From Gnetum montanum (Eukaryota; Plantae; Gnetophyta): a stretch of DNA of 64,000 bases. The stretch covers positions 494,963-558,962 of the forward strand of contig MNCI01000952.1 in NCBI GenBank assembly GCA_015680685.1, written 5' to 3'. The translations under genes and the position numbers were made by a program. Of this stretch, positions 5,441 to 58,605 are shown in pieces. Positions within the stretch are counted from its first letter, which is position 1; each line of letters begins with the position of its first letter. Below the pieces are notes generated by a model that did not search any database, had not been told where the DNA came from, and was given only the letters and a program-made list of their open reading frames with translations.

Positions 5441-5449
5441 TAATTAAAT

Positions 5450-14486: not shown

Positions 14487-15315
14487 TGATGAAGCATTAT
14501 AATAGGTTGCATTGACGGGCATGCGTCAACGCAACCTCATCAATGTAGCCTATCTAAATGAATCCACTAGCTACATTTATGGCGCATTGTGTTAGTAGCA
14601 TAGTGAAGCCCTTGCAATTTGTTTTTCTAAAAGTTGGAATATTTTCATTTGAATGCCCATAGTGTGGGTGAAAGAGATTGTATGAAACTTTATTTGAGTG
14701 TAAGATACTTGAATACATTGGCACAGATGACAATAAAGTCAAGAATTTTGACATTCATTGTAGCACTTGGATTAGCTTAATCTTCCTTACTAGCACTTTA
14801 TTTTCCATGCGTTTTATATTCCAAGTCATAGATACTTAATGTAAGTAATCATGAATGCATAAGTATGACCACTTCGAGCATAAGGTATTGTGCTTGGTAA
14901 TCCTAGTAGTGATCATTTGGTACACCCAGTAATTGTCATTTAGTAACCTAGCAGCATTTATATGAGTTCGGGATGTTTGCGGCAAGTGGGAATGACTACT
15001 TTTATTAGAGTAGTTAGCCTTTAGAATAGTTAGGTAGTTAAAAAATTAATCATTAGATATTCATTTTTCCATATAGAACTTAAGATAAAAATATAAAAAA
15101 TCTAAATAAAAGAAAATATCATATACCTTAACTCACATTTGATCATATGTATAGCACACAAGTGTGAGTTAGGAAAATAATGATAATATGACCCCTTGGT
15201 TCATAATTTTTGACTACAGGAAAACTTAGAAAGTAAGTTTGCAGAATTTAACCAGATCACTAGTACATGCTTATGATTAGTATGGTTGGGTGTAAGGTAT
15301 ACTCATTGCTCATGA
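14487..15315 (+). repeat. Element B 5' LTR
   Basis: Direct repeat of 32399-33269, followed by degenerate PBS TTGACACTATTTTTTAGGGA. Confidence 0.9.
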
Positions 15316-15466
15316 TTGACACTATTTTTTAGGGACTTAGTTTAGCTAAGTATGCCGAGTAGGATGAAACTATGAAGTTATAAAAAGAGGTTGTAGACAC
15401 CATTCAATGATCAACTATTAAAAGATTACAACATTTAAAGGCATAATATTTTTATTAATCACTAAT

Positions 15467-18400
15467 ATGTCTTCTCACAAGGATAAATATCTACTACATA
15501 TGGACAAATCTAATCAACAACAGGGAGTCTCAAAGAAGTCCCAACAACTAAAAGTGATCACTATTTTCACCTTTATCTTACATCAAGATGAACAAATGCA
15601 TTGGAGGGACATGGAAAGAAACATTGTGTTGCCTCTAGATTGATTTGCTCTTTCTATGTTAATGAACAATCTCATCAAGTTGGTTATCATTGCACTTAAA
15701 TTTGAATATGAAGTCTTAGACTATACCTACAAAGACTATCATTCCATCGAGGTCTAGCTTAAGTAGGATCGGTAGCTGGAGGTGTGATATGAGGTCTCTA
15801 AAGGAAAGAGGATCTAAACAAAATTATTCTTGTAGTAGCAAAAAGAGGGCAAGGATTTCTTTTCTAGCCAATACCAGTACATAGATTCTCCTCCTCTGTA
15901 TAATGAGAAGATCCAAAACCAAAGGTTACAGTTAACTCTAGAGAACCTTCATGATGGAAAAGCTGGGTCTCATGACCATACGGCCTCAAAAGATAAGAAT
16001 CCTAGCCATTTATCTAAGGGAAAGGATAATAATCAAAAGAATAACAAAGAAAAGCATAAGGATTGGGAAAGGTACTAAAGGAGGGAAACTAGTAGGCATC
16101 ATTCCCCTAGTTCTCCTTCTTCTTCATCCTCATTGTCCTCTTTGTCTTCTTCCTCAAAATTTGAAAGGAGGAATAGGAGTTGAGATAAAAGGAGGGGTAG
16201 TCGAGATTAAGATGGAGATGATTGGCAAGATAGAAATGATTGATGATCCCACCAAAATGATTAGGATCAGAACCAAGGACAACCACAAATGGGAGAGGAG
16301 TGTCATAGAGACTGAAGACATAGCAAACCTCATCATAGACATCATGATCATGAAAGGGATCACTGTGATTATCATGACCATGATGAGCCTTTGTTGGCTA
16401 CTTGGAATATGCTCAACATTTTATAGGCAGTCAGAATTCTAATAAGACATTAGAAAGATAGCAGAATTAAGAGACTAGGTATGAATAATATTCCTAGGTT
16501 TAAAGGGGACTATACTTTAGATCTGCAAAATCATCTGTAAATCCTTTCATGATACTTGTGCCTTGAAAAACATAGAGAATGAATGGAAAAAGATAAAATT
16601 ATTTTTATAGACACTTATTAAGGAAGTAGAAGGATGGTACTAGTCCTTTGAACTAGAATTCATTGGCCAGTCAAGTACTATGATATAACTCTTCAATGAT
16701 AAGTACCAAATGTACTCCAAAGTGTCTAACTTGTAGAGGTAGATCCATGAATGGAAATAAAGAAATATTGAGTCCTTGGATGTAGTCCTTGGTAGGTACC
16801 ACTCTTTATTGCATTGATGACTAGCCCATTGGTACTCCCAATGGGAATAACTTTACAATATTATAGATGGACTTTGAAATGAAATAAGGAAAACCTTTTA
16901 GGTTTATACCTAGAGAAGACTTTTTGAGATGAGGGCCCATTAGTTTCAAAGGATAATTGATTAAATGACTAAAGAAAAGGGGAGTTGAAAAAGTGTGAAA
17001 GTACAAAGGAGTATAATAGGGATCTCTCCATTCATAAAAGGGAGATACATTTCTGTAACTCAGATGGGGAGGTACCACTTGATGAAGTGATACAAAGAAA
17101 GACCTTGTCGATACAAAAATCTATCATTGAGATATTGACCAAAGTACATAAAATGTGGGACTCCTTGGATGAAAAGTTTCAAATAGCTCTAAAAATTTTA
17201 GAGGAATGAAAGGACCAAGGGAGTAGTGGTTAAAAAAGAAGGAAGAAGAAGGACATAGAGTAGGGTTATTATCAGAGCAAGGGGAAGGCTGCAATAGTTG
17301 AAGAGGTTGCAGGTTTTGAAATAGATGATGATGGCTATGAGATTTTCTAATATGAACATCCTAAGGGATGTTGCCTAGCGCTATTGCATCTACAAGAGTC
17401 TAGGATGTATGTGTTGAATCCCAAGTTTTCAAAGAGATAAGCATTGAGATGGTTGTCTTGTTTGCAAGGCAATTGTAGGTAGCAGTTCCACCAATCAACG
17501 TACTATCCAAGTGGAGAATCTTCTCAACCTCAGGAGTAGCATCAATAGTGGGAACACCTACAATCATGAGGAATGCCACCACCATAGTAGTAGTATCCCT
17601 ACCAACAACAAAATCCTTATGGATATTACATCTAGCAACCTGTGTCCTACATGACTCCTCTGGCCATGCTTCCATCCCTTACCATTACTACCCTCCTGAA
17701 TATTACAAAGCACCTTCTCTAAGGAGGAGGGGGGGTTGGGGGAAGGGGGATGGTTTCCTTTCCCTTTTCATCCTCCACATCATCTATCAACTCTTACATC
17801 ATAACCAACTATACCCTTGTCACCTACTCCATCCATGTGGGGTGGAATTCCATCACAATCACAATAGAGAAATGTTGCAAGGGTGGTAAATCTATAGCTA
17901 GATACCCATTCGAGTGGTTTTGAATCAAAGCCTCATAAGAGACTATTCTTTAGAACCGACAAGTCAAAAAAATCCTCATAGGCGGGTGTGGCTATTAACC
18001 CTACCATCTCTACCTTTGATGATACCATTGAGTCACCTTCAAACCAAAAGACCTCCAATATCCGCACTATTATGTTGATCCATGTGGTCATTTATTAGGT
18101 CAAGGCTGGTCACCTTTTTAGGAAATAATCTGATACTGAGAGCCCTCTCATTTATTTACAAATTGTAAGGAATGAACCATGTAAGGCTTTGTTGGACTCA
18201 GGTTTTGGGATGAACATAATCTTGTAAGAAATTTACGAGGCCTACAACTTACCTCCTATGAAGAAGAGCAACATTAGACTTAAGTTGGTTGATTAGTCCA
18301 TCACTATTTCTCTTGGGCTACTAGAGGACATTGTGACCATCATTTTTGGGTGGTATTATCCTGCTGATTTCCTTGTCATCCATGTGAAAAATTATAATGG

Positions 18401-21400
18401 TAACTTTCCTATCATCATGGAAAGGACATGGTTGAGTGCTATTGATGTCAAAATGGGGATTAGAGACCTTTCCTTGGAAATCTTCAAGGAAAATAAATTT
18501 GACAAAGTGGGGAAGAAGAGGATTCCATGCATCATATATAATGACATTGGGTGCCATTGCATGTAAAAACTATGAATGGTCAAAGATACATAATTCCAAG
18601 TATACAATAAATGTGTTAAAATGGTGATCATTCAAAGGTGCCTGTATATAGTAGCCACAAAAAAAGAGGGTACCCAGTGGTTGATAATAGATCACCAAGT
18701 TGAATCCACCATGCGCATGGAACCATTGGAGAGCCTCACTAGTGCCTATATTAAAAACATGGATGAAATGGAGTAATTCCATTATGAACTCTCCCACACA
18801 TAGAGAAACAGATTGGGGAGAGTTGGAGATCCCTGATAACTTTAAACAAGAGTCCCTTGAATTAAAGGCTTTAATGACAACTATGGAATGTGCCTTTCTT
18901 ACTAATGGTAAGTCGATAATCATAAATGCCAACTTTACTCTAGAACAAAAAATAGAAGGTATTAAAGGTGGTAAACAAATGGCCAACAACCTTTGTGTGG
19001 TCATATCATGAACTGATAGGAATAGATCTGTGAATATGCTAACATCACATTTATACAACCTCCTCCATTAAGCTAAAGAGGTAGTCACAGAGAAGATTGG
19101 ACCCCAAACTTAAGTAGGTTGTCAAAGAGGAGGTTAGACAACTCCTCAAGGCTAGGTTCATCTACTTGATTGTGGATAGTGAATGGATTAGCCCACTCAT
19201 TATTGTATATAAGAAATGGGGGAAATTGAAAGTTTGCATATACTTTTAGCTGTTGACATGGTAACCTTCAAGGATTACTTTCTGTTGCCATTTGTTGATC
19301 AAGTGTTGGATACCATAGTAGGGCATTGATATTACAACTTCTTGGATGATTATTATGGCTATAACAAAATCTTGATAACATTGAAGGACCAAGCTGAAAC
19401 TACATTAACAAGTCAATGGAGAACTTTTGCATACAAAAAGGTGCCATTTGGCCTTTGCAATTCTCTTACTATATTCCAATGCTTGATGCTTAGTATCTTT
19501 CAACAATATATTGGCAGTGGGGTAGAAGTCTTCATGGATGACTTCTCTACCTATGATGCTACATTTGAGTAAGCTTTAGACTATCTTGAGTAGGTTCTTC
19601 AAAGATATATGGAAATTACTTTAAAGCTTAACTAATAGAAAAGTCACCTGATGATCCAAGAAGGGATTGTATTGCTGCATAGAAGTTTAAGCAAAGGGAT
19701 TGAGATGGGCTTGAAAAAAGTATGGGTCATCCAAGGAATCACCAAGCAACTCAAAATGATTAAATATGTAACGTCATTCCTTGGCCACTCTAGTTATTAT
19801 AAGCACTTCATTGAGAACTTCTTGAAAATTGCTAAACCATTGGTGGAGCTAATAAAGAAGGATGCACCTTTCACTTGGACCAAAAAATGTGAGAATGCAA
19901 TCCAATAGTTAAAGAAAAAGCTTGTGGAAACCCTAATTCTCCTATTCCTGATAGGTCCAATTCATTTCACATTATAACTAATGCATCCAATTATGCTTTG
20001 GGGGTTATGCTTACATAATTGGATGATCAAAAACATCCTTTATGCATTAATTGTATAGGTCAAAGCATCATGGAGGCATAATTAAACTACACCACCATGG
20101 AGAAGGAGCTCATGGTGATGGTGTATGCCTTAGAAAAATTGAGGCACTATGTGCTTGGATATCAAGTTTTTGTATACATAGATTGTAGTGTTATTTGGTT
20201 CCTCATGACCAAACCAATGGTGAGCCCTCGTGTCATACAGTGGCTAGTAATTCTACAAGAGTTTGATCTCGCCATGGTGAGCAGGAAGGGAACTAAGAAT
20301 GTGGTCACTAATCACTTGTCTCAGTTATGATGAGACAACAAAGAGGGTGAGGAGCATTTATTTGACCAATTTTTAGATGAATTCCTCTTTGCCAAAACTA
20401 TTGAAATGAAAAGTGCCAAAGGTACTAATTAGTACAAGGAATTCCTCTCCTATCTACACACAAAAGATGCCATAAGAATGGGATAACAAGAAGAAATAAC
20501 AATTTCTTCACCAAGCCAAACACTACATGGAAATGAGGGGCAACCTTTACAAGGTTTGTGCTGATAGCTTGGTATAATGGTGCATGCCAAATGATGATTA
20601 ACTTCAAATCCTTTAGGACACTCATTAAGGTCAATGTAGGGACTATTACACTAAAAGGAAGATAACCATTAAAATTCTCATGGTAGGACATTACTAGCCA
20701 ACCATCTTTAGGGATGCTCATCAATTCTCTTGTTTGTGTGAATGCTACCAATGTGATGGAGGGATGACTGTACTAATGAAAGGGCACAAATAGTGGATTC
20801 AACCACTGGAGCCTTTTGATCTTTGGGGCATTGATTTTATGAGGTCCATCAACCCCATGTACAATGGAAAGACATACATCATCGTGGTAGTTAACTATTG
20901 CACCAAATGGGCTAAAGTTGCCATTTTCACCGATTGTTCATCCTCTACAACGATATAGTTTATGTAAAAGAATGTGATAAATAGGTTTGGTATGCCAAAA
21001 GCACTTATTTCTAATAATGGAACACATTGTACAAGTGCAAATTTTTGGAAATTGATGCAATGCTTATGGGTGAAACACAAAGGAACAACTCCATACCATC
21101 CTTAAGCTAATGGTCGAGAAGAAGTCACAAATAGGGAGATAACTTAGATAATAACACATATTGTTAGTAAATATAGGAAAGATTAGAGCACAAAACTTAA
21201 TGATGCTCTTTGGGCTTATTGGTCAACTTGAAAACTTCCTATCAGTTATTTCCCTTATGAGTTAGTGTACAAAAAAAATATCAACTTTTCCAATCCAAGT
21301 AGAGCTCTATACACTTTCAACAACTTGTGAACTTGACCTCGATTTGAGTCTAGCACAAAGAGAATGATTAATGACGTTGAATGTGCTAGACAAAAATTGA

Positions 21401-21553
21401 TTAGTAGTCATGTTCATGAATGAAGGGCATAAGGCACACACTAAATAACATCATGGCTTAATGATAAAAAATTTAAATTTTAACTAGGAGATAAGGTTCT
21501 TTACTAGAATCCCATGCATATACCACAACACACAAAATTTTAGATACTATAAG
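15467..21553 (+). pseudogene. Element B gag-pol (gag, PR, RT, RH, IN), disrupted
   Basis: PR KALLDSG at ~18183 and YYPADFLVI. RT DDYYGYNKI..VPFGLCN..VFMDDF (ORF 19342-19572). RH (ORF 20097-20330). IN PFDLWGIDFM at ~20812. Confidence 0.9.
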
Positions 21554-24500
21554 TGTTAACCTTTCGATGTGTTAAAATTTTAAGTAAAATGGAGTACAAG
21601 GATGCTTGTATGATTGTGTGGTTGATTGTGTTTGTAGGGAAAGAGTGTGGACAAGGACTTTATAGACCTCAAGGACTTACAAGTGAAGATGACATCATGA
21701 AGACCTTGGAGTGAGACAAGGAAGACATGAGGAATTTTAAGAACTTCGACAAGGAATAAAGAATTCAAAGAGCAAAGGAACGTGAAGAAAGATGTATCCA
21801 AGAAATAGAAGACATCTTGGTAGAATTGAAGGCAACATATGAGAACACATCTTTGCAAAATAGTAGACATATTTCTAAAGAGAAAGACATCTTTCATTAG
21901 AAGAAGACATCTTTGCAGAATGAAGGACAATTGTAGAAAGATGTCTTTCACTAGAAGAAGATGTCTTCCCAGAATAGAGGCCAGATGCATAAAGATGTCT
22001 CAATCATGAAGAATATGTCTTTCATGATCATTAGTTATCCATTACATGAGTTTTAAGATGAATTTAAAAACATAGTAGATATAAGAAGACATCATTATCA
22101 TTGGAAAATGTGCAAGATTTTGTATTTTCATTGTGTAATCATCAAGCAATCATTGTATTCATTATTGTTTCTCATGGTACAATCATTTGTCTATTTGTAA
22201 ATTAGTCAAAGTGAGCTATGCCTCAAAGTGCAAGGATCAATAAACTCAGTTACATTCTTTCTTTGTAATTATTGTTCTCTTTTGTTTCCCTATGGGTTGA
22301 TGTGCTTTTTGTGGGAAGACATCTTGATTGAGCTTATCGAGATCTTACAAGATTGATGTTGGTGTAGCACCACAATACTCTAGAGAAGAGCTCAAGTTGT
22401 AAAGGTTATGGGATCTTGGAAACCACTTTCTAAGCTTGTTGGGGCCTTGCAAGGTTGAGTGGATTCATAGTGTCGAATCACTCCATTATAGAGCTTAGAG
22501 CTTGTATAGGGTGTGGTACCCTTCAAGCCACATTTGAGAGTAACAAAGTCTAGAGGTGTGCTTACAAACTACCCTCTGAGTGTGGAATCCCCAAGTTGGG
22601 GAACCATGTTAAATTTGGTGTGTACTTTTTCTCAAATATTCTTTATTTTTAAAAACTTATTCATTCTCCCCCACCTTCTAAGTTCAATGATCCACAAGTG
22701 GTATCGAAGTTTGGTACTCTTCTTCATCATCAACTTCAAAGAGTGAACAATAAAGGGGACTTCTTATACAACGCTATCCATGTTCAACATATTTGACTTC
22801 ACCTACTGGAAAGATAGAATGTAGGAATTCTTTGAATCCATGAAGTTTGAAGTTTGGGAGTCAATCCTTGAAGGCTACACTTCACTTGTCAACAGCTCTA
22901 CTAACATCATTAAGCCTTGCAACAAATGGACTCAAGAGGAGAAAGATAAGTTCATGTTTGATTCAAAAGAAAATAATTATTTATTTTTTTCTTTGAATAA
23001 ATTTGAATTTAATAGAGTAGCAGGATGTAAAATGGCCAAAGAAATTTGGAAAAATTTAGAAGCTACTTATGAAGGAACATCTACTATCAAACAATCTAAA
23101 TTGTTAGTTTTGCAAAGCGAATATGATAAGCTCAGAATGAGAGAAGGTGAGAAAATAAAAGATTACTTCTCTAGAGTGAATGATATTGTTGTAGCTATTA
23201 GAGGCATAGGTAAAGTTTTTCTTGAGAGTGATGTCATCATCAAAATGATCAGAACTCTTTAATTGGAGTTCAAACCAAAATTCACAGTTATGGAAGAAAT
23301 AAGAGATTTCTCAACTTTGAAATTTGAAGAACTTAAAAGTGCTTTCATCACCTATCAAATGAATCTGATAAGAAAAGAAGCCATCCAAGAAAGACCTATT
23401 GCTCTGAAGATTATCTCCAAGGGGAAGGACCTTAATGAGCATGATGAGGGTAGTGAAGATGAGATTGCCTTTCTCTCAAGAAAGCTACAATGATTGCTAA
23501 CAATAAGAAACAAGGATGCATTTCAACAAAGAACCAATTTGTTCAAAGGTGGAGAAAAAAGGTAAATGTTTTTTTGAATTTTAACTTAGATTTCTCTTCT
23601 ATAGAATGTTGGGTTTGTGGATGAAGAGGCCATATGGCCTTCGAATGTCCTAGTGATAGCAGGGTACAATCAAAGAACATATCCAATGATGAGGAATCAA
23701 AAAAGACCAACTTTTATACAAGTTGGGATGATGGTGAGTAAAGTGAAGAAGAAGCATGCAATTCTTCTAAAGATTCACATCTCATATGAATGGCACTTAT
23801 AGATGAAAATTCTTCACATATGGTTGACCAAGGTGGTAAGTGTGATAAAAAATATAGTGAAATTTTTCTTTTCCATTATTTGATTAGGAAGGTAAAGAAA
23901 TTTGTAATTTCTAAGCTAGATGCTATTCACATTGAAGTGAAAGGAGAGATCTTAGACATAAAGGCTAAGATTCAATAACTAACCTTTTTAAATAAGGATT
24001 TTAGAAAGGTTCAAGAAGAGAAGTATCTTGAAAAATAGCCAAAGAATTTTGAAAAAGTCACATAGGAAAATTCAAGCTTAAGCATAATCAGATTTGATAA
24101 CATTGTTCATGAGGAGAATACTTTATTTGTGTGTAAAAAATATGGTAATAAGCAAATCCTTAACTATTCTCATGATGATCAAAAAAATAATGATGCTTGG
24201 TCTTGTCAAAAATGCTTTGGTAAGAAAATTTTGCAGGCACCAATAGCTAAAAATGAAGAGAAGTGGAAAATTCAAAATGATGCAATAAGTGATCAAGGGT
24301 TCTTTTAGAAAGACCATGAATAAATAGAGGCATCACATATATGATCTAATGAAAGAGAACCTAAGGATGAGGAGGTACTTCATGATAGGGGACCTCATCT
24401 CAAACTCCATTAATCTTCTCTTCACACTTGTAACCAAGGTAAGTCAAGGTAGGTTTTTGTCTCGTTGCTTGCTAGTTAATAAGTACATGAGTTGAGAAGT

Positions 24501-27177
24501 CCAAAATTGTTTGTGTCATGTCTAGATTAGAAAACTGTTGAAATAATTTTTTGGAGTATCTCTTATATTCATTTTGAGCTTGATGCAATTTATGAAAATA
24601 TGTAGTGTAGCACTTGTATTGCTTTCCTTTGGGCTTTTATCTTGTAATATTTTTAGTTGGCTTTTTGTCTTGCTTTCAATCCTACATGATTTGTACTTCT
24701 TGTGATGATCTGGTTCTAAGATCATGCCCTTTGGGATAGTTTAGCCATTGTTGTGATAAGTCATGATTTTTTAAGTAGACATAACTTTGAATATTCTATC
24801 CATATTATTGATTAGAGACCTTAGTATTTACATTTGATCTTTATGCTAACTTATAGTTGTAGTGCTTTGGTGCTTTACAACAATTACAAAATGATCTTAA
24901 AAGCCCAAGAAGAGTTGCACATGTGTAGGGGGAGCATGTTCCTCATTATCTATCTTGGAGGTCATTAATGTAGGGGGAGTCTTTAGAGACTTCTGCCAAA
25001 AAGCACTCACATAGCAATATATCATAATGAGCAAGGATTCATGTCATGCAAGGGTATGGTATAGTATCCATGGTTAAAGAAGATTTAAATGTTGGTTAAG
25101 TAATCTTACAGACATTTTACCTTGTGCTATCGTTTGGTTACTGTTTGAACATTATGTTAAGATTCTATTTGGCTATTTTTGGGCATTCGCTTATTTTGAT
25201 TTTAGTATTTTTCCTTCTTCATGAGAATTTATTTTTTGCTTACAGCTGTATCCTTTCCTTCTTGCCATATAATTGCCTTCATGATGCTTTCATAAGAGTT
25301 GAGTATTTATAGAATCATGACATGTTGGCTTACCTTATGAGTTTATTGATTTAAAAGGATAGGTTATTTGATCCTTAAAATTTTGGTTTTGATAAGGGTA
25401 TCTTCTTTCTTGTTTAACATTTTCAACCCTTTGAAGTTGTGCTAAGAGATGTATATAGGATCTTGATATATAAGTTTTAATGAGATATTTAATTCAAGCT
25501 GATAGGTTACTTGATTCTATATGCTCAATCTTTGGTCATTGGCATTTGAATTTATTTTCTCTTAAACATTAATTACAATTTTTTAGTCATGTTTAAATTT
25601 GTTATGGCTTATTCTTTCTCAAGGACAGATCTTAATGAATTGAAGACAACATACAAATTAAATTTTTAAGTTTGTGTCTTTTCACCTGACTTCTTTGCTT
25701 TTGTATTTTAGCATGCTATGAATATATCTTCCCTTGAGTACTTAAGCATCTCTTTCTTATTTAGACTTCATTGATGCAAGAAGTAGTTGTATTTCTATTA
25801 ATGAAATGTTGACAAAATTGCTTTGTGATGTACTTGGAGATAGAGATTGTGTTTAATGCATATCTTTTATGACTATTGATAGTTATGATTAAGTATTATT
25901 GGCATATTGTTCCTTTTTGATAGACTTGTGTGCTTTTTGTTGTTGTTGTTCAAAAAGGGGGAGAGTATAGTTATGGAAATATTTGGATATTTTTATGTCT
26001 AATAACCCATTTTCTTAAGTTTTAAAAATCACCAAAAAGGGGGAGATTGTTGACCTTTTGGTGTGTTAAAACATTAAGAAAATAAAATACAAGAATGCTT
26101 GTATGTTTGTGTGGTTGATTGTGTTTGTAGGGAAAGAGTGTGGACAAGGACTTTATAGAGCTTAAGGACTTACAGGCAAAGTTAAACAACATTAAGACTG
26201 TGGAGTGAGACAAGGAAGACATGAGGAAGTTTGAGATCTTGAACAAGGAATGAAGAATTCAAAGTGCAAAGGAAGGTAAAGAAAGACGTCTCCAAGAAAT
26301 AGAAGACATCGTGGTAGAATTGAAGGCAACATAGAAGAAGATGTCTCTAAAAAACAATAGATATCTTTCAATAGAAGAAGATGTCTTTGTAGAATGAAGG
26401 CAAGTTACAGAAAGACATCTTTCACCAAAAGAAGATGTCTTTCTAGAATGGAGGCCAGATGTAAAAAGACATCTTAGTTATGAAGAAGATGTCTTGCATG
26501 ACCATTAGTTAGCCATTGCATGAGTCCCAAGATGAATTTTGAAACATAGTGGCTATAAGAAGACATCATTCTCATTGGGAAATGTGCAAGCTTTTATATT
26601 AGCATTGTGTAATCATCAAAAAATCATTGTATTCATTATTATTCCTCATTGCACAATCATTTATTTGTTTGTAAATTGGTCAAAGTGAGTTTTGCCTCAA
26701 AGTGCAAGGATTAGCAACTTAGTTGCATTCTTTACTTGTGATTGTTGTTTGTTCTCTTTTGTTGCCTTGTGGGGTTGATGTGCTTCTTGCAAGAAGACAT
26801 ATTTAATTGAACTTGTCGAGATCTTGTGGGATTGAGTGTTGGTGTAGCATCATAATACTCCAAAGCAGAGCTCAAGTTGTAAAGGTTTTGGATCTTGGAA
26901 ACCACTTTCTAAGCTTGTCAGGACCTTACAGGGTTAAGTGGATTCATAGTATCAAATCACTCCATTGTGGAGATTAGAGCTTGTATAGGGTGTGGTATCC
27001 TTTAAACCACATTTAAGAGCAATAAAGTCTAGAGGGGTGCTTGCGAACTACCCTTTGAGTGTGGACTACCTAAGTTGGGGAACCATGTTAAATTTGGTGT
27101 GTGCTTTGTCTTAAAGATTTTTTTATTTTGGGAAACTTATTCATCCCCTCCTCCCCTTCTAAGTTCAATGATTCACA
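21554..27177 (+). mobile_element. Non-autonomous (gag-only) Sirevirus-like Ty1/copia element nested in the integrase of B
   Basis: LTRs 21554-22696 and 26048-27177 (TGTT...CACA). tRNA-iMet-type PBS TGGTATC at 22699. PPT AAAAAGGGGGAGAT at 26034-26047 plus upstream PPT copies. Near-TSD ATAAG/ATGAG. No RT/IN motifs found. Confidence 0.9.
22780..23990 (+). pseudogene. Copia/SIRE gag (UBN2-type) with zinc knuckle
   Basis: FDFTYWKDRM at ~22792. ORF 22840-23262 contains EFNRVAGCKMAKEIWKNLEATYEGT. CWVCG*RGHMAFECP knuckle at ~23607-23651. Confidence 0.85.
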
Positions 27178-27330
27178 ATGAGAAGGACCTTATATTATTT
27201 ATGAAACTTTTCCTTTTGGGGCCATGATGATTTACCACCCTTCCAGCCTAGACAAGCAGTTGCTAGTCAACATTCAACAAGTATAAACTTTCTTTGAATT
27301 AGGGCTAAGTAACATGGACATCCCAACTGA
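27178..27330 (+). pseudogene. Element B integrase C-terminus (GPY/F motif)
   Basis: EGPYIIYETFPFGA..LLVNIQQV*TF resumes right after the Copia insertion. Confidence 0.8.
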
Positions 27331-28828
27331 TGGACAAGCACATTCTATCTTGCAGATCTCCTCCTTCCAACGTAGTCATGGGAGAGATGGCCACCCATGT
27401 TAAGATTTTGTGATGGTTACTCTATTTTTCAACCTTTTTTTTACATTGTTCCTTCTAAGTGTTTCAATTTTCTTGAATATTTTGCATTTAATTTTGTATA
27501 TTTATTTTTATTAACTTCCCTTATGTATTTTTTTCTTATTTTTTTGTTCATCAAGAATCTTGCACTTCTTCCATAAGTTGCGACTACTACTGGAAATTAA
27601 TTTCATACTATATTTCATGTTTGTATTGATTATTCAATGACTTGTTTTCACCTTAGGATTGTGTCATTGATTACTGGAGCATTAATTTTATTATGGTATT
27701 AAGTAGTGAGTTCACATAATCCATCCATTCCACTAAATTCTATGGGATTTTTTCATTTTAGAAGCATGAGGTCCTTTCATAATTGCAAATTAAAAAGAAT
27801 CAATGATCTTGGTACTTAACAGACTTAGAAGGAATCAAGTGGAATGGACAAGGGTGTGACTTCAAAGGGATTTTTCACCATCTATACCTCACTTCCTTCT
27901 TGATTTTTATGGGTATTCTCATTAGTCTCTCATCACTTCTATTGTTGACCAATAACAGGAAGCATGCCTTTGCATGGTGTGGTTCCCATGAAAAAAAAAA
28001 ATCAGCACATGGTAATCCAAAGCACACTCCTTAGATACAATAATGAGCTACAAGAATTAATTATGGGGCTGGAAAGACATGTTACCCATGCCTAAAGGAA
28101 TCCCTTTAACTAAGGTCCTTCCTATCTTATTACTTCTCTTTTCTTCTCTAACTTGGAGTGGTGGTTGTCTTGAGGGGGTGGTCATGAACTCTTGTTGGCT
28201 ACATAGTCAGAATATGGTAATGTGAAGTCTTTGAATGTGGGAGGACTTGGTTTCAACCATTAATTAGATAGTATCTTGTCATCTTAAACATAAGTTCTAG
28301 AAGGACTTCAGGTAACTGAGATGCAAAACTTTGTTTTAACTCTCTCTTTTCTATCCCTTTGTTGTCATCAACCATCTCACTACCTCCTATCATGATTAGT
28401 TAATGTGTCTATTTTTGTCTATCATAACCTTTTGATGATCTCTTTCGTGGATTTGATTTTTAACTGCCTATGATCATTAATCATCCTTGATGTCTACAAA
28501 CTCCTTGCTACAAGGGCATGCATAGACATTAATGTCATGAGCCTACTTTGAGAAGGATCCACTTGCATATCTCTTGGTCTTATTTTAGTTAAACTTCCTA
28601 TCCCTTGGTTATTTTTCAATCAATCCCATCATTTCATCTTATAAAACATCCTATTTTGCAACATTTCAGCATCCTCATTTTTATCCAAATCTCCTTTTTT
28701 CATCATATCTAATACACTCTTCCATGTTTTTGTCATCCTTATTTTCTTTTTTAGCTTCTTTTAGACTCTTTTATCATCCTAAAACTCTTCCAAAATATTT
28801 CATTTTTAAATGGGAAAAATTGCTTAAA

Positions 28829-28880
28829 ATAGCTACATCAATGCATCCTTGTTGATGCAGCTAAAAAACAGTATAAATAC
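28829..28880 (+). promoter_or_regulatory. Putative internal promoter of B ORF2
   Basis: CATCAATGCA..TGTTGATGCAGC motifs like those in the B LTR U3, followed by TATAAATA at 28872. Confidence 0.5.
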
Positions 28881-29309
28881 ACGTAAAATGTGGTCATTTC
28901 CCTACCATTTTTCTTCAAATAAGAGAGATTTTTTTGCAATTTTTAAAGCCTAGAGACCTTCTAAGTACTCTAACTTGCAAATTTCTTATTCATTTCATCT
29001 TGTTCTTTGATCCTCGAGCTACCAATGGTAAACATTACGTTGTGAAGGTCACAAACCTTTGGTTTATGATAGAAAATTTTTCAAGAATTTTCTAAGTTTC
29101 CAAGGTTTACCTATTAAAATAATATTAAAATATTCATCCTAGATAGGGTTAAACCTTACAAAAAAAAGTTTGGTAGCTGATTAATAAAATAATAAAGTTA
29201 CTATGATAACTAACAAACCTAAGTGTAACTCGATCCAATGAGAAAGGTACCAAAAGGACTTAGGGTTATAAACTAAAATGCTAATCTAGGGTTACATTTA
29301 TGATCATAG

Positions 29310-32160
29310 ATCACACCAAAGAAGGGAGCACCAATAGTGGGACCTTCCCAACTGAGGGAGAAGTAGCCATGAGGAGGAAGGGGCTAGTAACAACCAAAAT
29401 AGCCCTAGGAACAAGAGGCCAAAGCTACACATGCAACAAGACCTCTTCAAAAGGAGCTTGAAGTGGAATTTTTTCGACCAATTTTGTTTGCCAAAGCTAG
29501 CCAATCTAGGTAGGATGAGGATCCAAGACTAAGATCTAACCTTGAGGTCACATTAATGGAGGCCTACCTAGAGAAGATTTGAACCAAGGAGGCTTAGAGT
29601 TTAGTTCTCTAGGAATTGAACTTTGAACCCTTTTTAGGATTGACATAAGAGGAAGTATACACTTAATTATAGGGGTCTCCAATGTGGCCCATTCTCTCCT
29701 ACCATGTAGAATGGTACATGGGGAAGACCTACCTATTCTGGAACAATTGACAAGGATATGCATCTATTAAGATTAAAGAAATTATAGTCTTCTACTCGGT
29801 TGAAGCCATTGCGAAGGTCCTTGGTTTGCCTGACACTAGGGCAATATTTGTAAGAAGTATGGACCTAGGTAGATTTAGAAGTTAAGAAAGAGTGGATCTA
29901 GTATTGCTATGGAGCTGATTGTAAGTAGTACGATGTACTCACAAAGGTAGAGCATATCTATTTCAAGATTATAGCTTATTAGCTAAACCCATGGTGAGGC
30001 CAAGCAAGGTTATAGCCTTCTCCACCCATGCATGTGCTACTCTAAGTAGTAAGTTTCTTGTCAACCTTTTATAGCTTATTTATCTCAAGATAGAGAAGCT
30101 CTTTAAGTAAAATGAAAAAGGAAAGAAGACACTCCCCTTTCCATGTTTCATTAGAAAACTTTGCAAAATAGAAGGCATAGTGCACTATGCCAATGATGTA
30201 GTTCATCATGCTCCTATTGCATCTTGGCAAGAGATGATGAAGTATAAGGTAGCAGGGAAGCTACAGGAAGAGGAGAGGCCACCACCATGATCACTTATAG
30301 GAGAAACCATCCTAAAGGTGTTTGTAATTATAGAAAGGCTCTAGAAAATATATGAGTGGTAGTTGCAATAATAGTAGGGTTTAGTAGGTGGTGGGGAACC
30401 ATCAGTTTACCATCTAGCACTTAACCATCTAAACAAAGTCACAAGGACTATCAGTTGACTAGAGGAAACTACCCCACTATTCTCCACACAAAGAAATTAG
30501 GTGTTTGCTAGAAAAAATTCTAGCACTCAGGAAGTTATAGTGTCCATCCATGGATAGGAGTTTCTTGAAATTTTTGGGAATGCCAAAACTTTCTTAGTGT
30601 GCCTGGAGGAAGGTGAGGGGGCACCTATCCTAGTGATGCCACACTAAGAATAAGAAATAGTGATAGAGGTGGTGGTCAATAGGGTTTGTAGAAACCCTAA
30701 ATGGTTCTATAACATCTATCCTAGACATAACTATAATGACACATATTCAAACATTAGTAGGAGAAAAAAGTGATCAGTTGAGTGCAACCCAACATGAAGA
30801 AGTGTTGGCAAGACCAATTAGATCCAGGAAACTACTTCTAGAGATCTTTTGATCTCTTGGATGAAATAACAACAACCTAGTCAAAGCTGCTAGAGATGAA
30901 GAGCAAATTTCTCATTGCCAACGTCCAACTAAAGACACCCACCATAGAAAACTAATGGTTGGCTATTGAAGTTATAAAGTTGCAGGTCCATCTCTTCGAC
31001 CCCATCATTTTCAACCCAGAGCTCATAAAAGATGAAGCTTTCCAACAACTTTAGCACAAAATAAGGGAGATTAAGAATATAAATAAGGCAATGATCTTTG
31101 ACATGTCTTTGTTGGAAGCCATGACCTTTAACACCAAAAAGAACTTGTTAGAAGTTCTCAAAAAAACTTGGTTCTCACCAAGGATATCCATTGCCTGCAT
31201 AATATCAAACAAAAAAAAGGCTAGATGGTCAAATTTGTTTAATAGTAGCAAGAGTAGCAAGTGAAGGTGAACCTTGATTTAAGAAGGTTGGTAGTAGAAA
31301 ATCAAAATCTCTCAATGGAGGAAGTTTAAGTGATTCTTCAAAAAATAGTCATTGAGGTAGTCACTTGGAAAAATGAAGCCTTGAAATTTGAATGAGTTAA
31401 AAATCATTATAGGGACTAGGTTGAGATCCTTAAAGAGGTAAATGAAAAGAAAATTCAACTATCTAAGATAAAGATGAATGAGGCCCTTCAGCAACTCTAG
31501 TAAAGAGGTGATGTGTGGTAGCTAATATTTGATGGCCTAAATGCATATAACAAAGCCAAAATTTGATTGAAGAGTTGCAAATCAAGGAGATGATAGAATA
31601 CATTGATCTTGTTAACCTTTGATATGCAAACTTGGCTATGTTGACATCGAGAAGGCTAAGAACAAAATTTGAAAAGTAGGTGGCTAATTCCTACCTCTTA
31701 TACAAGGTAGAATTCAAGCACCATAAGGAAACCAAGTAGCAATTGGAGATAACCAACACAAAGCTTGAAGTTCTTAGAAGAAAATTTGCTAACCAACGAT
31801 CTATTGTTGAGAACCTGGCTAGGACAATGAATGACTACCACAAGTTGTAGAACTTAGTAAAGACATTTGACATCAAACATAAACAATTTGTAGCTTGATT
31901 CATCAATGCCAAGTAAATGTTCCCAACGATCCTATGCCCATGGGATATCCTTATGCCAACCCATATTGGTGATGCTGTGTGGATTGTGTATGACCCACAC
32001 AATTGAAAAGATGAGATGAAAGCATTACTAGATGCTTTTAGGCTTTCTTTAGTAGTTGTAGCAATAGTAGGTTGACCTCAACCACCTCCTTTGTCACAAG
32101 CGTTGGATCCTAGTGAAGGACCTTCAGTGTCCTAGGAGCCTCCACCTCCTAGAACTATTT
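29310..32160 (+). pseudogene. Element B second (env-like/Athila ORF2-type) ORF: Transposase_32-like N-domain plus long coiled-coil, disrupted
   Basis: IKIKEIIVFYSVEAIAKVLGLP (~29767), LPFPCFIRKLCKIEGI (~30132), W*LIFDGL (~31516), ILCPWDILMPTHIGDAVWIVYDP (~31929). Colinear with A ORF2. Confidence 0.7.
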
Positions 32161-32398
32161 GAGAATTTGTCCTATCTTCAGTAACTAAAATAGACTTGCT
32201 AAAATTTTTGTAAAAGTGTCCAATTTTGTTGTCATTGACACCAATTTTATAATATTGTAAAATTTTACACTCAAAGTTAGTTAATTAGTTAGTTTATTAT
32301 TTTTTAGTTAATAAATTTCATATTTTTCTAATTTTTGTAAAAAGATCAATCCTACTTTTGCTCACTTGAGGATGATTTTTTAGTCAATTGTGAAGGTA

Positions 32399-33269
32399 TG
32401 ATGAAGCATCATAAATAGGTTGCATCGACAAGCATGCATCGATGCAGCCCCATCAATGCATGGTGTTGATGCAGATGTGTTGATAATGATGCAAGTGTAG
32501 CCTATATAAATGCATGCACCAACCACTTTTATGACATCTTGTGTCAATACCATGATGAAATCCTTATAGTTTTTCTTTCCTAGAGTTAGAATATTTTTCT
32601 TTGAGTATCCATAGTTTGAGTAAAAGAGATTGTACGAAACTTTATTTGAACACCATGTACCTAAATGCATTGGCATCAATGACAATAAAGTTGAGATTTC
32701 TAGCATTCATTATAGCACTTGGATTAGCTTAATCTTTCTTACTAGCTCTTTATTTTCCATGCATTTTATATTCTAAGTCATATATACTTTATGTAATTAA
32801 CCATGAATAGATAAGTATGACTATTTTGAGCATAAGGTATTGCACTTGGTAATCCTAGTAGTGGTCATTTCGTATGCCCAATAATAGCCACTTGGTAATC
32901 TAACAATATTTATATAAGTTTGGAATGTGTGTAGAAAGTAGGAACAACTAATTATGTCAGGGTAGTTAGCCTTTAGAATAGTTAGGTAGTTAAAAAAATT
33001 AAACATTAAATATTCATTTTTCCACATAGAACTTAAGATAAAAAATATATAAATTATAAATAAACAAATATCATATACCTTAACTCATATTTAACCATAC
33101 GCATAGAACACATAAGTGTGAGTTAGGAAGACAATGATCACATGACTCCTTGATTCACAATTTTTAACTATGAACAAACTTAGAAACTAAGTTTGCAAAA
33201 TTTGATTGGATTGCTAATACATGCTTGTGATTCACATGGTTAGGCATAGGGTATACTTGTTGCTCATCA
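32399..33269 (+). repeat. Element B 3' LTR
   Basis: Preceded by CTTGAGGATG..AGTCAATTGTGAAGGTA. TATATAAA at 32503. Confidence 0.9.
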
Positions 33270-33440: not shown

Positions 33441-35100
33441 GCAAAGATTCTACCATGATTGCAAAACCATTCATTACTCATTCAATCTTCCAAATATCCA
33501 CTTGTAATGATAGTCTAGGGGATGTCAAGTTTTACACCTAGATACTAAATCCTCTTTTCCAATTCTTGTTATATTTTTTTTGTTTCTTACCAAATTTTTA
33601 CATTCTTTAATATCTTTTTCCATTTCTTAACCATTTTTCATTCATTAACATCTTTTCTATTTTTATACATTTTTCTATTCTTACTCTTATTTTTGTTGAC
33701 TTTTCCAATAAAGTGTAAAGAAATAAAATAAGATGTAGTTCCAACAATGATAATTTCACCATATGTTATCAAATCATTAAAGGACTGATTATATGTGTAG
33801 TGACCACATCATCCATCCAATTATTTCGAATAATAAGAAGTTCTTACCATGGACATACTGACATTCATTTTACTTTAAAATTAAAATAAACATATGATCA
33901 TTATTTTTAGATAGAAAAGTAAAGAACCACGTAGGAATGAAAAGGGTGTGAAATCAATGATATTTGTAGATTTTCTAAAGTAGCTACTATGAGTCTTATC
34001 CTACTATTAAGTTTTATTATTCACTTGAGTTCTAACAAAAAATGGAAGTATGTTTAAAATAAGTGCTGCCTTACCATGTCACTGGAAAGACATGTTNTAA
34101 AATAAGTGCTGCCTTACCATGTCACTGGAAAGACATGTTACCCATGCCTGAAGGTAGTCCTTTGGTAAAGTTGACACATTAATAACATAATAAATGCTTA
34201 AAAATTTCAAGGTTTCTTAGACTCACATTAGTTATGGGGATAGAAAGACATGCTACCCATGCTTGAAGGTACTCCTTTTTTCTATGGCCAAGTCTTCTTT
34301 TTAAAAAAATTAAAGTGTGTTGTTAGTAAACTTCTTTCTTGAATTTCTTTGCCAAGTATTAGTACTCCTTGCAGTAGTGGTAGTCTTGTAGTTGTTAGTT
34401 TTGGGATAATGCAATGTGATGTCACTGGTAAGTGGTATCAACTTAGTTTTACCAGTGACATCAACTTAGTTTTGATCTTGGAAAAAAGGGCTAATGATTA
34501 CTTTAACCATACATCACACACAAAATTCATTATGCCTATGGTAAGATACCTTATGTTCCATTCTTTGCAATGCCTTTTACTTTCATTCCAACTTACTGCT
34601 ATATACAATCATAATTTAATGATTTTGCATAATATAGTGTTATTTTCTTATTAAGGAAATACCAACATGTGTGTTTTGGAAGACAAATATGTTTTACATT
34701 CAACTCCTTAAGTGCCTACACATACTTATGGGTGTGGTTATACAAGGGCACTAAGGGTTGGAGCTTGCTTTGGGGAGGATCCACTTGTATAAATCTTATG
34801 CTTCATCCTGATGACCAATTCCACATCATCTTGTACCTCTAGAACACTTAAATGATCATTGTTACTTTCCTATCTACTCATCTTCCATAATATATTTGTC
34901 AATTTTTACCAACCATCTCCTATAGACATCATTGACTTACGTTGCCTAAATTCTTTTCTTCACATACTTTTGAAGATAAATCCTTACATTTTGAACATCA
35001 TCCATGATCAAGAACCTTTTAGACCATCTTTATACCTTCTAGACTATATATTTCACCTAATTTTTCTATCGAAAATCTCTCAAAATATCAAAAATTTTCA

Positions 35101-35195: not shown

Positions 35196-35746
35196 GTGAG
35201 GAGTTGAAATTTTTTTTCATTCTTCTCATTTCATGCATAGGGAGTTCATGATGTTTTTTCTAACCCTCTGACACCCGAAATTCCAAGTTTCATAACTTTA
35301 CCATAGCTTCAAATTATGTGATTCATGAATCCTCTTGATCATGGAGTGACCAACTCAGTCATGGGGAAGAGTGTTGTGCGTAATTTGTATGATTAGCATC
35401 AAAATTTTCTAACACCTAGAAGAACATATTAAGGGTAAGAACAATAAGAATTGATTATATTCTAAATAAATAACCAAATAAAGGCTAATGAACTTAACAA
35501 TCTTTTCCTATTAACCATTCAAATACATGTAAAATAAGAAATTAACCATTGTGAGAGGTTATGAAAAACAAAAACACTAAGAATACAACAATTAAGGATT
35601 TCTTTTCAAAATTTTCAAAATTTTTCTAAAAAGTAATAAGAAGAATGGATTTTGATCAAATCCAAGAATCTAAGAGAGAATTATAAATCATTAGAAACTT
35701 ATTTGAAATCCTTGGGTAATTTTAAATAGATTCTTTATGATTGGAG

Positions 35747-38724: not shown

Positions 38725-39613
38725 TGATAAGACCTTTGTCTTTGTAAGGTATAATATCATATCTATGATATCGTAGCTCTACATATGTCATTGTTGATGC
38801 AATATAGTGGGCCATGATCATGCTTATACATATCAATCCATTGTTGTATTAGAAATAACTTTTGCCAACACTTAGCTAAATTCTTGCAGTTTATTTTCAT
38901 AACTTAGATGTAGCGATAGAGGGAATGCCCATAGTGCGGTGTTTAAAAATTGTATGAAATCTTTGTTCAAGTGGATTATTCTTGGGCACAATTCATGACT
39001 AGAAATAAAAATTGAGATTTTTTATTACCATTACAACATCTCACTTAGCTTAATTTTTAAAAATTCTTATTTTATCTTTTAGCATGTTTACTTATGTTAC
39101 TTACACTTTCTAAGTACTTTACTTTTTCAATGTCTTTTAGTGAGGTGATACAAGTATGACTAGTTTTGAGCATGAAGTGTAATTGTTTGGTAATCTAGGA
39201 GTGAGTTCACTTAATTCACTTAGTAGGGAATTCACTTGGTAATTCTAGTGATGATTATTGTGAGTCCTTGACATGTACAATAGGCCAGGAATAGATACTT
39301 ATCGCCATAGGCTAGATTAGATTTACATTTCTATCATACTTAGACTTAGATTTTATCCTTAGACTTTATCTTCACTATAATTATGTTGGCAATTAGGATA
39401 ATTAAAGCTAAACAACATCAACATATCATATGCCTAACCGAGAGTTAAATCATACAACTTGCACTTTGCTAACTCAACGTAAGAAGACAATGATCATGAA
39501 CTAAACATCAACTACTAGCATACTTATATTGTCCATCCATGGATTACAATCATGTTGCACATGTATACTTGTGACTTATATGGTTGAGTGTTGAAATACC
39601 CAATTGTTCATCA
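38725..39613 (+). repeat. Element A 3' LTR
   Basis: Direct repeat of 6557-7435, preceded by CTTGAGGATG..AGTCGTGGAGGTA. Confidence 0.92.
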
Positions 39614-40276
39614 CTTATTTTTTTTATTTTTTTCAAGTGTTATTATTGTAATGATCGAAAACATTGGTGGCTAGAATCACCAAGGGGTCAATAGACGCAC
39701 AACCTTAACCCCACCGCCGTGTAAGGGCCTTGCTAGAAACAGAGGTAGAGCATCCTAGATGGTCTTGTTGATTAAATAGGAACTTTGCTAGTTGCAACCA
39801 GGGTAGTGGATGCAACTGGGAAGTGGTGTGGTTAGTCGAAATGCAAATGTAAATAATACATAGTATAGCATGACGACATGTAAAAAAAGGTGTGGAAAGA
39901 TGTAAGAAAAATGCAAGAAAATGCTAGAAATGGGAGAGAGAAATGGAACACTACCCCAAATGGGAGTGTAGTTAACTCCAAAAGGATCTTAGAAGGTACA
40001 CAATGTACAATAGGCACAGTGGAAGCATAGTCATAGTCTCGATGGTGTCGGGCCGTGAAGTCTGGTGCTCGCCGTGATGAACTGTGCCTACTAGGATGGC
40101 TGTAATGGTGTACCATGCAGTGTTCTACAAGGTTGCAATAGGGCTGTAGTGGGTTGTGATGTGTAACTTTGTCTCTCTACTAGTGTGGTGTGCTCTAGGT
40201 CTCATTTGCCTAAAGATGCTAAGTGCCAAGATGTCAAAATGCCAAATGCCAAGTGCTTAAAAAGGCTCATGTTCAA

Positions 40277-40500
40277 GTAATGCCAACCACTTGGGAATGC
40301 CAATAGTTGGGGAATGCCAACTATTAGGAAATGTCAACAATTGAGGAATGCCAATAGTCAAGGCATGCCAACTTTTGGGGAATGCCAACAGTCTGGGAAT
40401 GCCAACAGTCAGCGAATGCCAACTATCGGGGAATGCCAATAGTCAACGAATGCTAACTGTTGGTGAATGCCAATAGTCGAGGAATGCCAATTGTTGGGGA
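40277..40500. repeat. GGGAATGCCAA(C/T)AGT motif array (~21-bp period) in the D 3' LTR
   Basis: About 10 copies of (GG)AATGCCAA are visible. Confidence 0.85.
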
Positions 40501-41898: not shown

Positions 41899-42130
41899 CA
41901 TGCCAGTTTAAAGTCCTGGCAGATCGTGATGTGCTAGTTTATAGTCCTAGTAGACTATTGGATGCTAGTTTAATGTCGTAGTAGATAGTGGATGTTGTGC
42001 CAATTTAACGCCATGACCCAAGGATGACCTATTGTGCTAGTTTAATCTCATGACCCAAGGATGATCTGTGCTAGTTTATATTCATAGCAGACTGTCTATG
42101 CCAATTTATAGTCATAGCGGACTAGTGCTT
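41899..42130. repeat. ~30-bp tandem repeats TGC(C/T)AGTTTA(A/T)..TC.TAG in the D 3' region
   Basis: About 7 degenerate units. The same core recurs at 45300-45385. Confidence 0.75.
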
Positions 42131-45270: not shown

Positions 45271-45299
45271 GCATAGGATCAAATTGTTGGTTGTGGGGT

Positions 45300-57250: not shown

Positions 57251-58605
57251 AACAAGCAAAATTAATAAATATTTTTCTCTTCCTTTGATCTTACAATTTT
57301 TAGTTTTTTAGTTTTTCATCTTTCAATTTGTTGTTTTATCTTTTTGGGGGTAATCTCATTAGTAAATAGAATACTCATGTGACCCACTGGTTGAGGTGTT
57401 GTTCTATGCTATCAAGTCTCGAGTAACTAATTATTTGGACAACGAGCCCATCACATCCACCCACCCATTCTATTAATAAGAGGTTCTACCTTGGGTACAA
57501 TGATATTCTTGTCATCACGAAAACTTAAAAAGTAATGTTGTGCTGATTATGCCTAGAGTGAAAATTGATGGACTAAGCGGGAATGGCCAGGGTGTGACAT
57601 CAAAGGGACTTGTGGATTCTCTTTGGTAACATCTGGAGGTGCTATCATGCAGCATGGTTGTACTAAGATCCTTGAAGATCTAGTGAAGAATGGGAGTAAG
57701 AGTAATAAAGGCACTCATAAACAAAAACCAATGCTCTTATAGGGGGTTCCATTAGAAAGACATGCATCCATGCCTAAAGGTAGGCAGCTTCTTTGGATTA
57801 AGCATTCAAGGAAAAAGAAAAGAAAAGAAAGATCAATAAAAAAGTGCCACAAAGAAATTCTGAATCACTCCTCCCTTGAATGAAATGCCAAGTGATCGTA
57901 CACCTTGTTGTCATGGTACTATTATGGTTGTTCACCATGGGATGAAACAATGCGATGTCACTGATCGGAGGAATGGACTTGGTCTTGATTTTGGAGCGAC
58001 GGGCTAATGATACATTAATCATGTCCTACACTCAAGATTCATTGTGCCCTGAGTTAGTTACCTCATGTCCCAATCTCTACAATCCCTTCTACAATTTGTC
58101 TCATCTCGCTGTTCATGTAATTATGACTTGTATCTTGTATAACATTGAATTGATATCTCATCATGGTGGTATCAACATGTTTGTGTTTTGTTACATCTAT
58201 GTAGATTACATTTAACCCTTTTAGTACCTACGGACACTTTTAGGGTGGTTACACAAGGGCATTATAGATGAAACTTACTTTGGGGAGGACCCACTTGCAT
58301 GACTTTTGTAATTTGTACTTGTTGCACACCACCACATCATTTTATACCCTTCGAGTACTTTATGGCCAACATTATTCTTTCCCTTATCATCCCTCTAATT
58401 CAAATGTTCCTATGTACCAACACATGTCCTTTCTCCTCATCCTATTCATGAATTTTATTGCCAGATTCTACCCCATTATACCTTTTGTGCCTTCCGGTCT
58501 ATTCCATGTTACCCTGAACCTCTCAAATTAACCTCAAATTCTTCATTTTTGGGGCTTAGAATTTTAAAAATTCATCAATTTCATTAATTACCCTATTTTA
58601 AATAG

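Follow-up and report, generated by a model that had tools for sequence, protein, structure and literature searches.

Host Elements and Genomic Setting

The window, i.e., the whole stretch of DNA analyzed here, comprises 64,000 nucleotides of Gnetum montanum (contig MNCI01000952.1); its DNA is AT-rich, CpG-depleted and of plant type (CpG observed/expected 0.2), and it is built of nested LTR retrotransposons. Element A, Athila-like, is delimited by LTRs at 6557-7435 and 38725-39613 (83% identical); element B, an Athila-like Ty3 LTR retrotransposon, spans 14487..33269 (LTRs 81% identical); and element C has LTRs at 53831-54761 and 59815-60751 (83% identical). All three lie on the + strand and, with LTRs 81-83% identical, are old copies. 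Element B interrupts the integrase of element A and is flanked on both sides by a 5-bp target duplication; a copia element (21554-27178) is in turn nested in the integrase of B.

Elements A and B contain gag, reverse transcriptase (RT), RNase H and integrase, followed by an extra sense ORF (ORF2) between pol and the 3′ LTR, for which A and B are similar at the protein level. The Ty3 domain order gag-RT-RH-INT is supported by Pfam matches in A; B, with Pfam matches for RT and RNase H and a pol alignable with that of A, is colinear in the alignment. Element C has only gag and a short ORF2-like frame, without pol. No extra archaeal-type RNase H was found in frames of at least 55 aa or in 18 spacer frames, a search whose sensitivity is limited by the decay of the copies. 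As the lack of this domain is described as a trait separating Athila from Tat (PMC6317226), A and B fit Athila rather than Tat. Regarding ORF2, its match to Transposase_32 is weak (E 0.0016, under the curated cut-off), and in A and C it opens with a short basic stretch. The primer site of the elements looks like what we take to be a tRNA-Asp motif.

A Conserved Non-Coding Domain in Three Families

The three elements represent distantly related Athila-like families and have in common a non-coding stretch of about 1,000 bases, for which a single long interrupted RNA stem is predicted. This domain lies on the + strand at 27651..28566 in B, where it includes a fold-back, a 3′ hairpin and a terminal conserved block (block 5), at 33744..34790 in A and at 57385..58300 in C. 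It starts 135-250 nt past the gag or gag-pol stop in all three copies, C being at the lower end with about 135 nt past its gag stop. An initial annotation of this DNA had placed it after pol in three families, which holds for A and B; in C, where it is kept although this element has no pol, it follows gag. The colinear blocks which that annotation had reported were found in the same order in B (27700-28575), A (33800-34790) and C (57445-58300), and the full spelling given for block 1 applies to B but not to A and C. In the 64-kb window, the patterns of blocks 2, 3 and 5 are confined to the three domains, on the + strand, and a profile of the three copies detected no fourth one (next match E 0.036). 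The minus strand carries a further Ty3 pol at 3700-5800, along with a piece that resembles an LTR and is related to A, B and C; no convincing copy of the domain was found downstream of it (best profile match E 1.3).

Across the whole domain, A and C are 62.7% identical, versus 56.7% in the LTRs, 58.0% in gag and 46-52% in the leader and flanks, and the similarity of B (51% to A, 43% to C) is mainly within the blocks. Columns invariant in all three copies make up 0.34 of the domain, 0.25-0.30 of flanks and leader, 0.38 of the LTR and 0.43 of gag. The domain is thus more conserved than its flanks, as had been claimed, but in the three-way comparison it does not exceed the LTR or gag. Block 4 is degraded in A. 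Block 3, which contains a CATG-N-CATG self-complementary hairpin, has two true copies in A (34128, 34243) and one in C (57755); the first of the three block-3 copies of A lies in a 43-nt tandem duplication around a single N (34050-34139) that is probably an assembly artefact. The purine run of block 5 (28547-28557 in B; 34769 in A; 58279 in C) looks like the 3′ polypurine tract of the elements themselves and might prime plus-strand synthesis as an additional site; an extra polypurine tract is described in Athila4 and Calypso (PMC2829016).

The domain is non-coding, as initially proposed, and decayed protein-coding sequence is not supported. Indeed, it shows no codon periodicity, its 18 frames have no Pfam match, 3 of 18 gaps are in frame, and each frame contains 15-34 stops. 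The period test alone is weak, its lag-3 signal being seen in an RT control and absent in a gag control. Rfam gave no match at the gathering threshold over the whole window; the best E obtained with covariance models was 0.44, far under threshold, and no tRNA was found, in agreement with the earlier statement that no known RNA family could be assigned. Group I/II introns, RNase P/MRP and the plant snRNA promoter element were set aside by eye on their motifs, with Rfam negative, and a scan for sigma-70 promoters, irrelevant to a plant, was at chance level.

Wider Occurrence and RNA Reads

Pattern scans for further copies returned none in viral contigs, none and then four in metagenome contigs and six in prokaryote genomes; these 10 loci were rejected as chance matches, since none extends convincingly past the pattern or shares protein similarity with the window. 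Protein-led locus searches gave no loci, and the relatives obtained with protein queries are generic retroelements. In four DNA runs, with four organism labels, contigs match the C domain at 80% identity or above (35,096, 34,353, 3,145 and 2,582 contigs). In two of these runs, single contigs join block 1 to block 2 across unlike sequence, a kind of joint that repeats can yield. Summed contig depth on B is 45,000-204,000 in the blocks versus 340-2,500 in the flanking spacer, and both ends of the C domain are covered poorly or not at all; since the parts of a stretch cannot be ranked by contig depth, these figures are suggestive only.

Three RNA runs provided 1,265, 452 and 349 mostly partial reads on B, concentrated at the integrase end, the blocks and the LTR region; they derive from related copies and fit B only partly. 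One run contains 682 reads in which an A-run follows 28001; their first mates lie chiefly on the minus strand, a sense-type bias consistent with oligo-dT having primed at a genomic A-tract of the sense RNA, but the match extends over only about 33 nt. Neither splice joints nor sharp RNA ends were detected on B in the three runs, which fit B partly.

These data bear on whether the domain, as a catalytic RNA or an IRES (both suggested at the outset) or as a shunt, produces or translates the ORF2 message. The loop blocks are near-invariant and may engage in crossing pairings (P1 and P3, see below), as is typical of compact tertiary folds, and this would suit such a role. We nevertheless consider it very improbable: nothing supports catalysis, Rfam being without match and the three RNA runs without sharp ends or joints, and an IRES is unlikely with ORF2 700-950 nt downstream and behind a conserved acceptor-like AG.

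Predicted Architecture of the Fold-Back

Stems P0, P6, P4 and P2, together with inner stems, lie on nearly one anti-diagonal; they are therefore predicted to nest on one axis as an interrupted fold-back of about 780 nt, centered on or beside block 3, which would be near its tip. The helix symmetry centers are near 28041 in B, 34190 in A and 57776 in C. All elements of the model are read on the + strand. The outer stem P0 pairs 27651..27710 with 28376..28435 in B (33744-33803/34593-34652 in A; 57387-57446/58105-58164 in C), with duplex z-scores of -5.2/-6.0/-6.6 in B/A/C (0/500 shuffles as good in each), and it is also found by single-copy folding. P6, the top site of the unbiased scan described below, pairs 27754..27777 with 28300-28323 in B (33842-33861/34527-34546 in A; 57487-57503/58039-58055 in C) and reaches -5.3/-5.7/-5.0, again with 0/500 shuffles in each copy. 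Further inside, P4, proposed by RNAalifold, joins 27831..27840 to block 4 (28245-28254) in B and 57570-57577 to 57978-57985 in C (z -3.5 in B, -3.8 in C, 0.2 in A), and P2 joins 27858-27864 to 28223-28229 (z -3.7/-2.4/-4.1), with one A-U/U-A swap. P2 has a competitor in A alone, namely a 16-bp local inverted repeat at 34417-34463, which includes a repeated 14-mer and looks like a template-switch product.

The fold-back leaves the C-rich block 1 (27712..27734) in one of its internal loops, from where it can base-pair with block 2a (P1). The purine-rich block 2 (27841..27871) holds the 5′ arm of P2 and the motif AAGGGA. With 28353-28361, this motif can form P3, a helix that either crosses the rod or is an alternative to it (z -6.1 in B, -3.5 in C, -0.1 in A). 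The tip of the fold-back (27940..28150), which is A-rich and purine-rich in B and C, combines block 3 (28071-28098) with an A-tract and small hairpins. The fold-back is followed on its 3′ side by hairpin P5 and block 5. P5 occupies 28487..28532 in B, with homologs at 34711-34717/34746-34752 in A and 58222-58229/58257-58264 in C (z -2.4 in B, -4.3 in A, -1.1 in C), and has two two-sided changes between B and A. Block 5 (28547..28566) consists of the short purine run and CCACTTG; its pairing with a pyrimidine run at the tip is weak (z -2.2/-0.5/-2.2).

Blocks 1 and 2 and the TCCCTT segment are mostly in loops of the fold-back. As P1 and P3 cross the rod on mostly different bases, they may be tertiary contacts or belong to a second fold; the model thus predicts that the most conserved blocks either dock mutually through P1 and P3 or form a second fold of similar energy. 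P4, P1 and P3 are unsupported in A, and the inner stem region is unsupported in B (z 0.1).

The helices initially put forward fared unevenly. The stem between blocks 1 and 2 (P1) is strong in B, where TCCATTCCACT and AGTGGAATGGA form a perfect 11-bp helix (27724-34/27838-48; z -4.7), but not in A (z 0.2) or C (z -1.6). The pairing over about 800 nt with AGGA(T/C)CC, supposed to close the domain, was not sustained, the positionally aligned segment having z-scores of only -0.9 to -1.5. Two assignments had to be revised: the GAGGTCCT of B (27768) is not the positional homolog of the GAGGTTCT of C and pairs best with 28300-28310, so it belongs to P6, and the aligned homolog of the A/C motif equated with the ACAAGGGCA of B at 28510 is 28520-28531. 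Taken together, the three proposed helices have 62.8% of cells paired versus 59.4% in shuffles, 34 of 500 shuffles being as high, and the 62.8% is itself lowered by the imperfect alignment register of block 1 in A and C. Of the large folded cis-acting RNA that had been suggested, the conserved, folded, non-coding and sense-strand character is supported; the helices proposed for it are the weaker ones, and the best-supported stems, which are long-range, had gone unseen.

Tests of the Predicted Structure

Since the arms had been chosen after folding, an unbiased scan was run over all aligned 50-nt window pairs, with composition correction and z<-2 in all three copies as criterion. In the domain, 9 of 2387 pairs pass, versus 1 of 4811 in the LTR, gag and downstream flank taken together. 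The best 8 of the 9 passing pairs are at two nested sites, P6 (-4.5/-3.6/-5.9) and P0 (-4.4/-5.0/-3.9). Moreover, arms pair best with the partner of their own copy for P0, P6 and the whole arms (3/3 rows each), the 3′ arm of P6 in A pairing about equally with the 5′ arm of C; whole-arm energies are -110, -103 and -142 kcal/mol versus -87, -71 and -114 with the best foreign arm. As arms are 44-74% identical between copies, this own-partner preference is not expected from the neutral decay of an old inverted repeat.

When the 5′ arm of P0 was slid over 3,162 positions of the window, the true partner ranked 1 for C and 4 for A; that of B falls between positions of the 20-nt grid and would come 2nd by its in-register energy. 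In a single-copy long-range scan, run up to position 28320, P0 was outside the top 30. The strongest duplex in the part scanned links 16111 with about 17160, i.e., the 5′ leader of B with gag (z -5.2).

Folded alone, each copy forms P0 at homologous places, and RNAalifold adds further nested stems. The folding energy of the whole domain is ordinary (z 0.13, 0.48). Free minimum-energy folds retain P0 but not the inner rod, whose cost is 24 kcal/mol in B and 2-4 in A and C (free/rod/branched energies: B -191.7/-167.9/-191.7; A -198.1/-196.2/-190.7; C -202.6/-199.1/-200.5). In constrained folds, helices are at most 11 bp long and are split by conserved non-complementary loops. As regards a possible MITE or foldback DNA transposon insertion, the arms are highly interrupted and occupy the same site in all three families.

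At the level of single base pairs, the picture is different. The rod model has 82% of its cells paired and 19 of its 93 pairs with two-sided changes (8.8 in shuffles; 0/500 as high), the model being derived from the same sequences; the type of change seen in 13 of the 19 could result from methylation decay acting on both arms, and that of the other 6 could not. A hold-out test gave no clear excess of kept pairs that are new on both sides (25/52 in the domain, 9/22 in the LTR, 9/26 in gag), the domain could not be told from LTR or gag by a scan for ungapped helices, and single-pair covariation, with three decayed copies, was not above controls. Among variant letters listed in the DNA runs, 9 of the 16 with a confident partner are compatible with pairing. 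Conservation is hence well supported at the level of helices, and base-level covariation is not established.

Two further explanations have to be weighed against these tests. The first, a hairpin-shaped precursor of small RNAs or mere residual homology with chance pairing, would agree with the long fold-back shape, with a three-way conservation not above LTR or gag and with the failure of the pair-level tests (ungapped-helix scan and hold-out) to separate the domain. It is hard to reconcile with the window-pair scan, which does separate the domain from controls, and with the own-partner preference of the arms, and the helices appear too interrupted for efficient dicing; its probability is accordingly very small.

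In the second, the blocks would be DNA motifs, for example an internal ORF2 promoter or sites for the ORF2 protein, and the complementarity would go back to an ancient inverted repeat that template switching has renewed family by family. An internal promoter of the ENV ORF is described for Athila6A (PMC4977677), several blocks are short palindromes or present twice, the private inverted repeat of A resembles a template-switch product, and the antisense arms of A and C pair too (z -3.4 to -6.3). On the other hand, sense pairing is stronger than antisense in 6 of 6 arm tests (with arms picked on the sense strand) and G-U pairs are common in it, the helices are short with conserved non-complementary loops between them, and no sharp RNA start was seen on B, which the reads fit partly. 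We regard DNA motifs as distinctly unlikely, and a real sense-strand RNA structure as highly probable.

Possible Functions of the Domain

An acceptor-like AG (TGAT-NN-NAG|AT, + strand) is conserved at the start of ORF2 in 3/3 copies (29302..29313 in B; 35747 in A; 59197 in C), 700-950 nt past the end of the domain. Located upstream of this acceptor, the domain would stay in the genomic RNA and leave with splicing of the ORF2 mRNA. As the main job of the domain, we tentatively favor a nuclear-export signal for unspliced genomic RNA, a reading drawn from position and analogy that is plausible while falling short of probable. In the unspliced RNA, the domain would bind host export factors or the ORF2 protein, and intron-containing RNA would thereby reach the cytoplasm for Gag translation and packaging. 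In Arabidopsis, ORF2 of ATHILA elements has been described as a spliced subgenomic mRNA (PMC7197481); an internal promoter and an intron reported for ORF2 of Athila6A (PMC4977677) count against the export reading.

The same fold-back could instead be a packaging or dimerization signal, with Gag binding its purine-rich tip and only unspliced RNA being encapsidated. In favor of this role, the domain is kept by the pol-less C and is likely absent from the spliced ORF2 mRNA; the tip is A-rich and purine-rich in B and C, and block 3, with its self-complementary CATG-N-CATG hairpin, is duplicated in A. Except for block 3, however, the sequence of the tip is variable, and the packaging signals of most LTR elements are in the 5′ leader, which counts against this role. 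A precedent for binding at the tip is the coat protein of CaMV, reported to bind the top of the leader stem-loop (PMC5902531). Packaging, which is not mutually exclusive with export, is the main rival reading, although on balance somewhat unlikely.

Alternatively, the domain could act on RNA stability, either by protecting from nonsense-mediated decay the long 3′ region that follows the gag-pol stop or by damping the use of the ORF2 acceptor. Its start 135-250 nt past the stop in all three copies, whether this is the stop of pol or of gag, the roughly 3.5-6 kb of transcript downstream and a precedent in Rous sarcoma virus (mentioned in PMC10309623) all agree with this proposal. The size of the domain and its conserved loop blocks nonetheless seem more elaborate than such a role would require, and we judge it quite improbable.

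Returning to export, a more ambitious form of this reading, which we consider rather unlikely, would make the domain a kilobase RNA machine, its rod folding back via two loop-loop pairings or switching between two folds and being read by the protein of the spliced ORF2 message, as in a Rev/RRE-type switch. If this were true, plants would have a Rev/RRE-type switch between spliced and genomic RNA, and the long-unexplained "env-like" ORF would have a function; the role of the extra ORF of Athila is presented as unsettled (PMC7264820). According to a 2025 review, the export of LTR-retrotransposon RNA has not been studied directly in plants (PMC12786077). If the model is true, the domain would also count as one of the larger cis-acting RNA structures reported from retrotransposons. 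Searches of the open full-text literature yielded no account of an element of this sort in plant Ty3 retrotransposons.

Relation to Known Systems

The MusD transport element (MTE) and the IAP RNA transport element (RTE) of mouse are, like the domain, structured cis-elements of LTR retroelements; they act in RNA export and are located downstream of pol. Export of unspliced RNA by the MTE is reported to need long-range kissing and pseudoknot pairings (PMC12786077, PMC5767303). In the domain, long-range stems are supported, and the crossing pairings P1 and P3 are predicted and weak in A. The domain differs from MTE and RTE in its length of about 1 kb, its construction on a long fold-back and its plant Ty3 lineage; they were compared by description, with no Rfam match. 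As for the receptor, none of the NXF1 type is known in plants according to PMC8421220.

In the HIV Rev response element and in the CERV of the Caenorhabditis elegans element Cer1, which serve export as well, an element on the unspliced RNA is combined with an accessory protein from a spliced message (PMC10309623). Here, the protein of ORF2 would have to bind the RNA in a system of this type; ORF2 is a weak Transposase_32 match, its copies are broken, and C has a short ORF2-like frame only. A large stem-loop with a purine-rich top binding the coat protein is also described in the 35S RNA leader of CaMV, a plant retroelement (PMC5902531), and this leader acts as an export-enhancing element (PMC8421220). 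The CaMV stem-loop is however in the 5′ leader and serves ribosome shunting, whereas the domain is after the gag-pol stop with the next ORF 700-950 nt away.

Between pol and the 3′ LTR, several plant elements contain conserved non-coding sequence in the same general region as the domain, i.e., tandem arrays in Retand, repeated motifs and extra polypurine tracts in Sirevirus and Athila4, and MIR854 hairpins in ATHILA6A (PMC11963269, PMC10085913, PMC2829016). These are tandem repeats, short DNA motifs and short hairpins, and the portions of these sources bearing on them describe no kilobase fold-back common to several families. By analogy, the domain may work like a known kind of element, a likeness of action that does not amount to membership in any family.

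Other Features of the Window

The short ORF2-like frame of C (59197-59634) has two successive counterparts, the start of ORF2 in A (35726-35884) and, apart from it, a segment close to where A and B end on the 3′ side (38252-38493 and 31860-31997, respectively). This split match hints at a second exon or a third ORF in full elements. Two consecutive halves of a DUF659 domain, which we take to be hAT-type, lie on either side of C (53619-53837 and 60695-60991), so that C is inserted into a DNA transposon. Within the pol of A, a reverse-oriented LTR-like insertion of a related family (12738-13726) is probably a solo LTR. At 39646-46482 lies an element of higher GC, with terminal repeats 82% identical, a 17-nt tandem array (40279-40501) and no convincing Pfam match. 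Finally, the LTRs of A, B and C have a weaker duplex in common, at 6968/7368, 14853/15248 and 54323/54683 (z -2.5/-1.8/-3.3).
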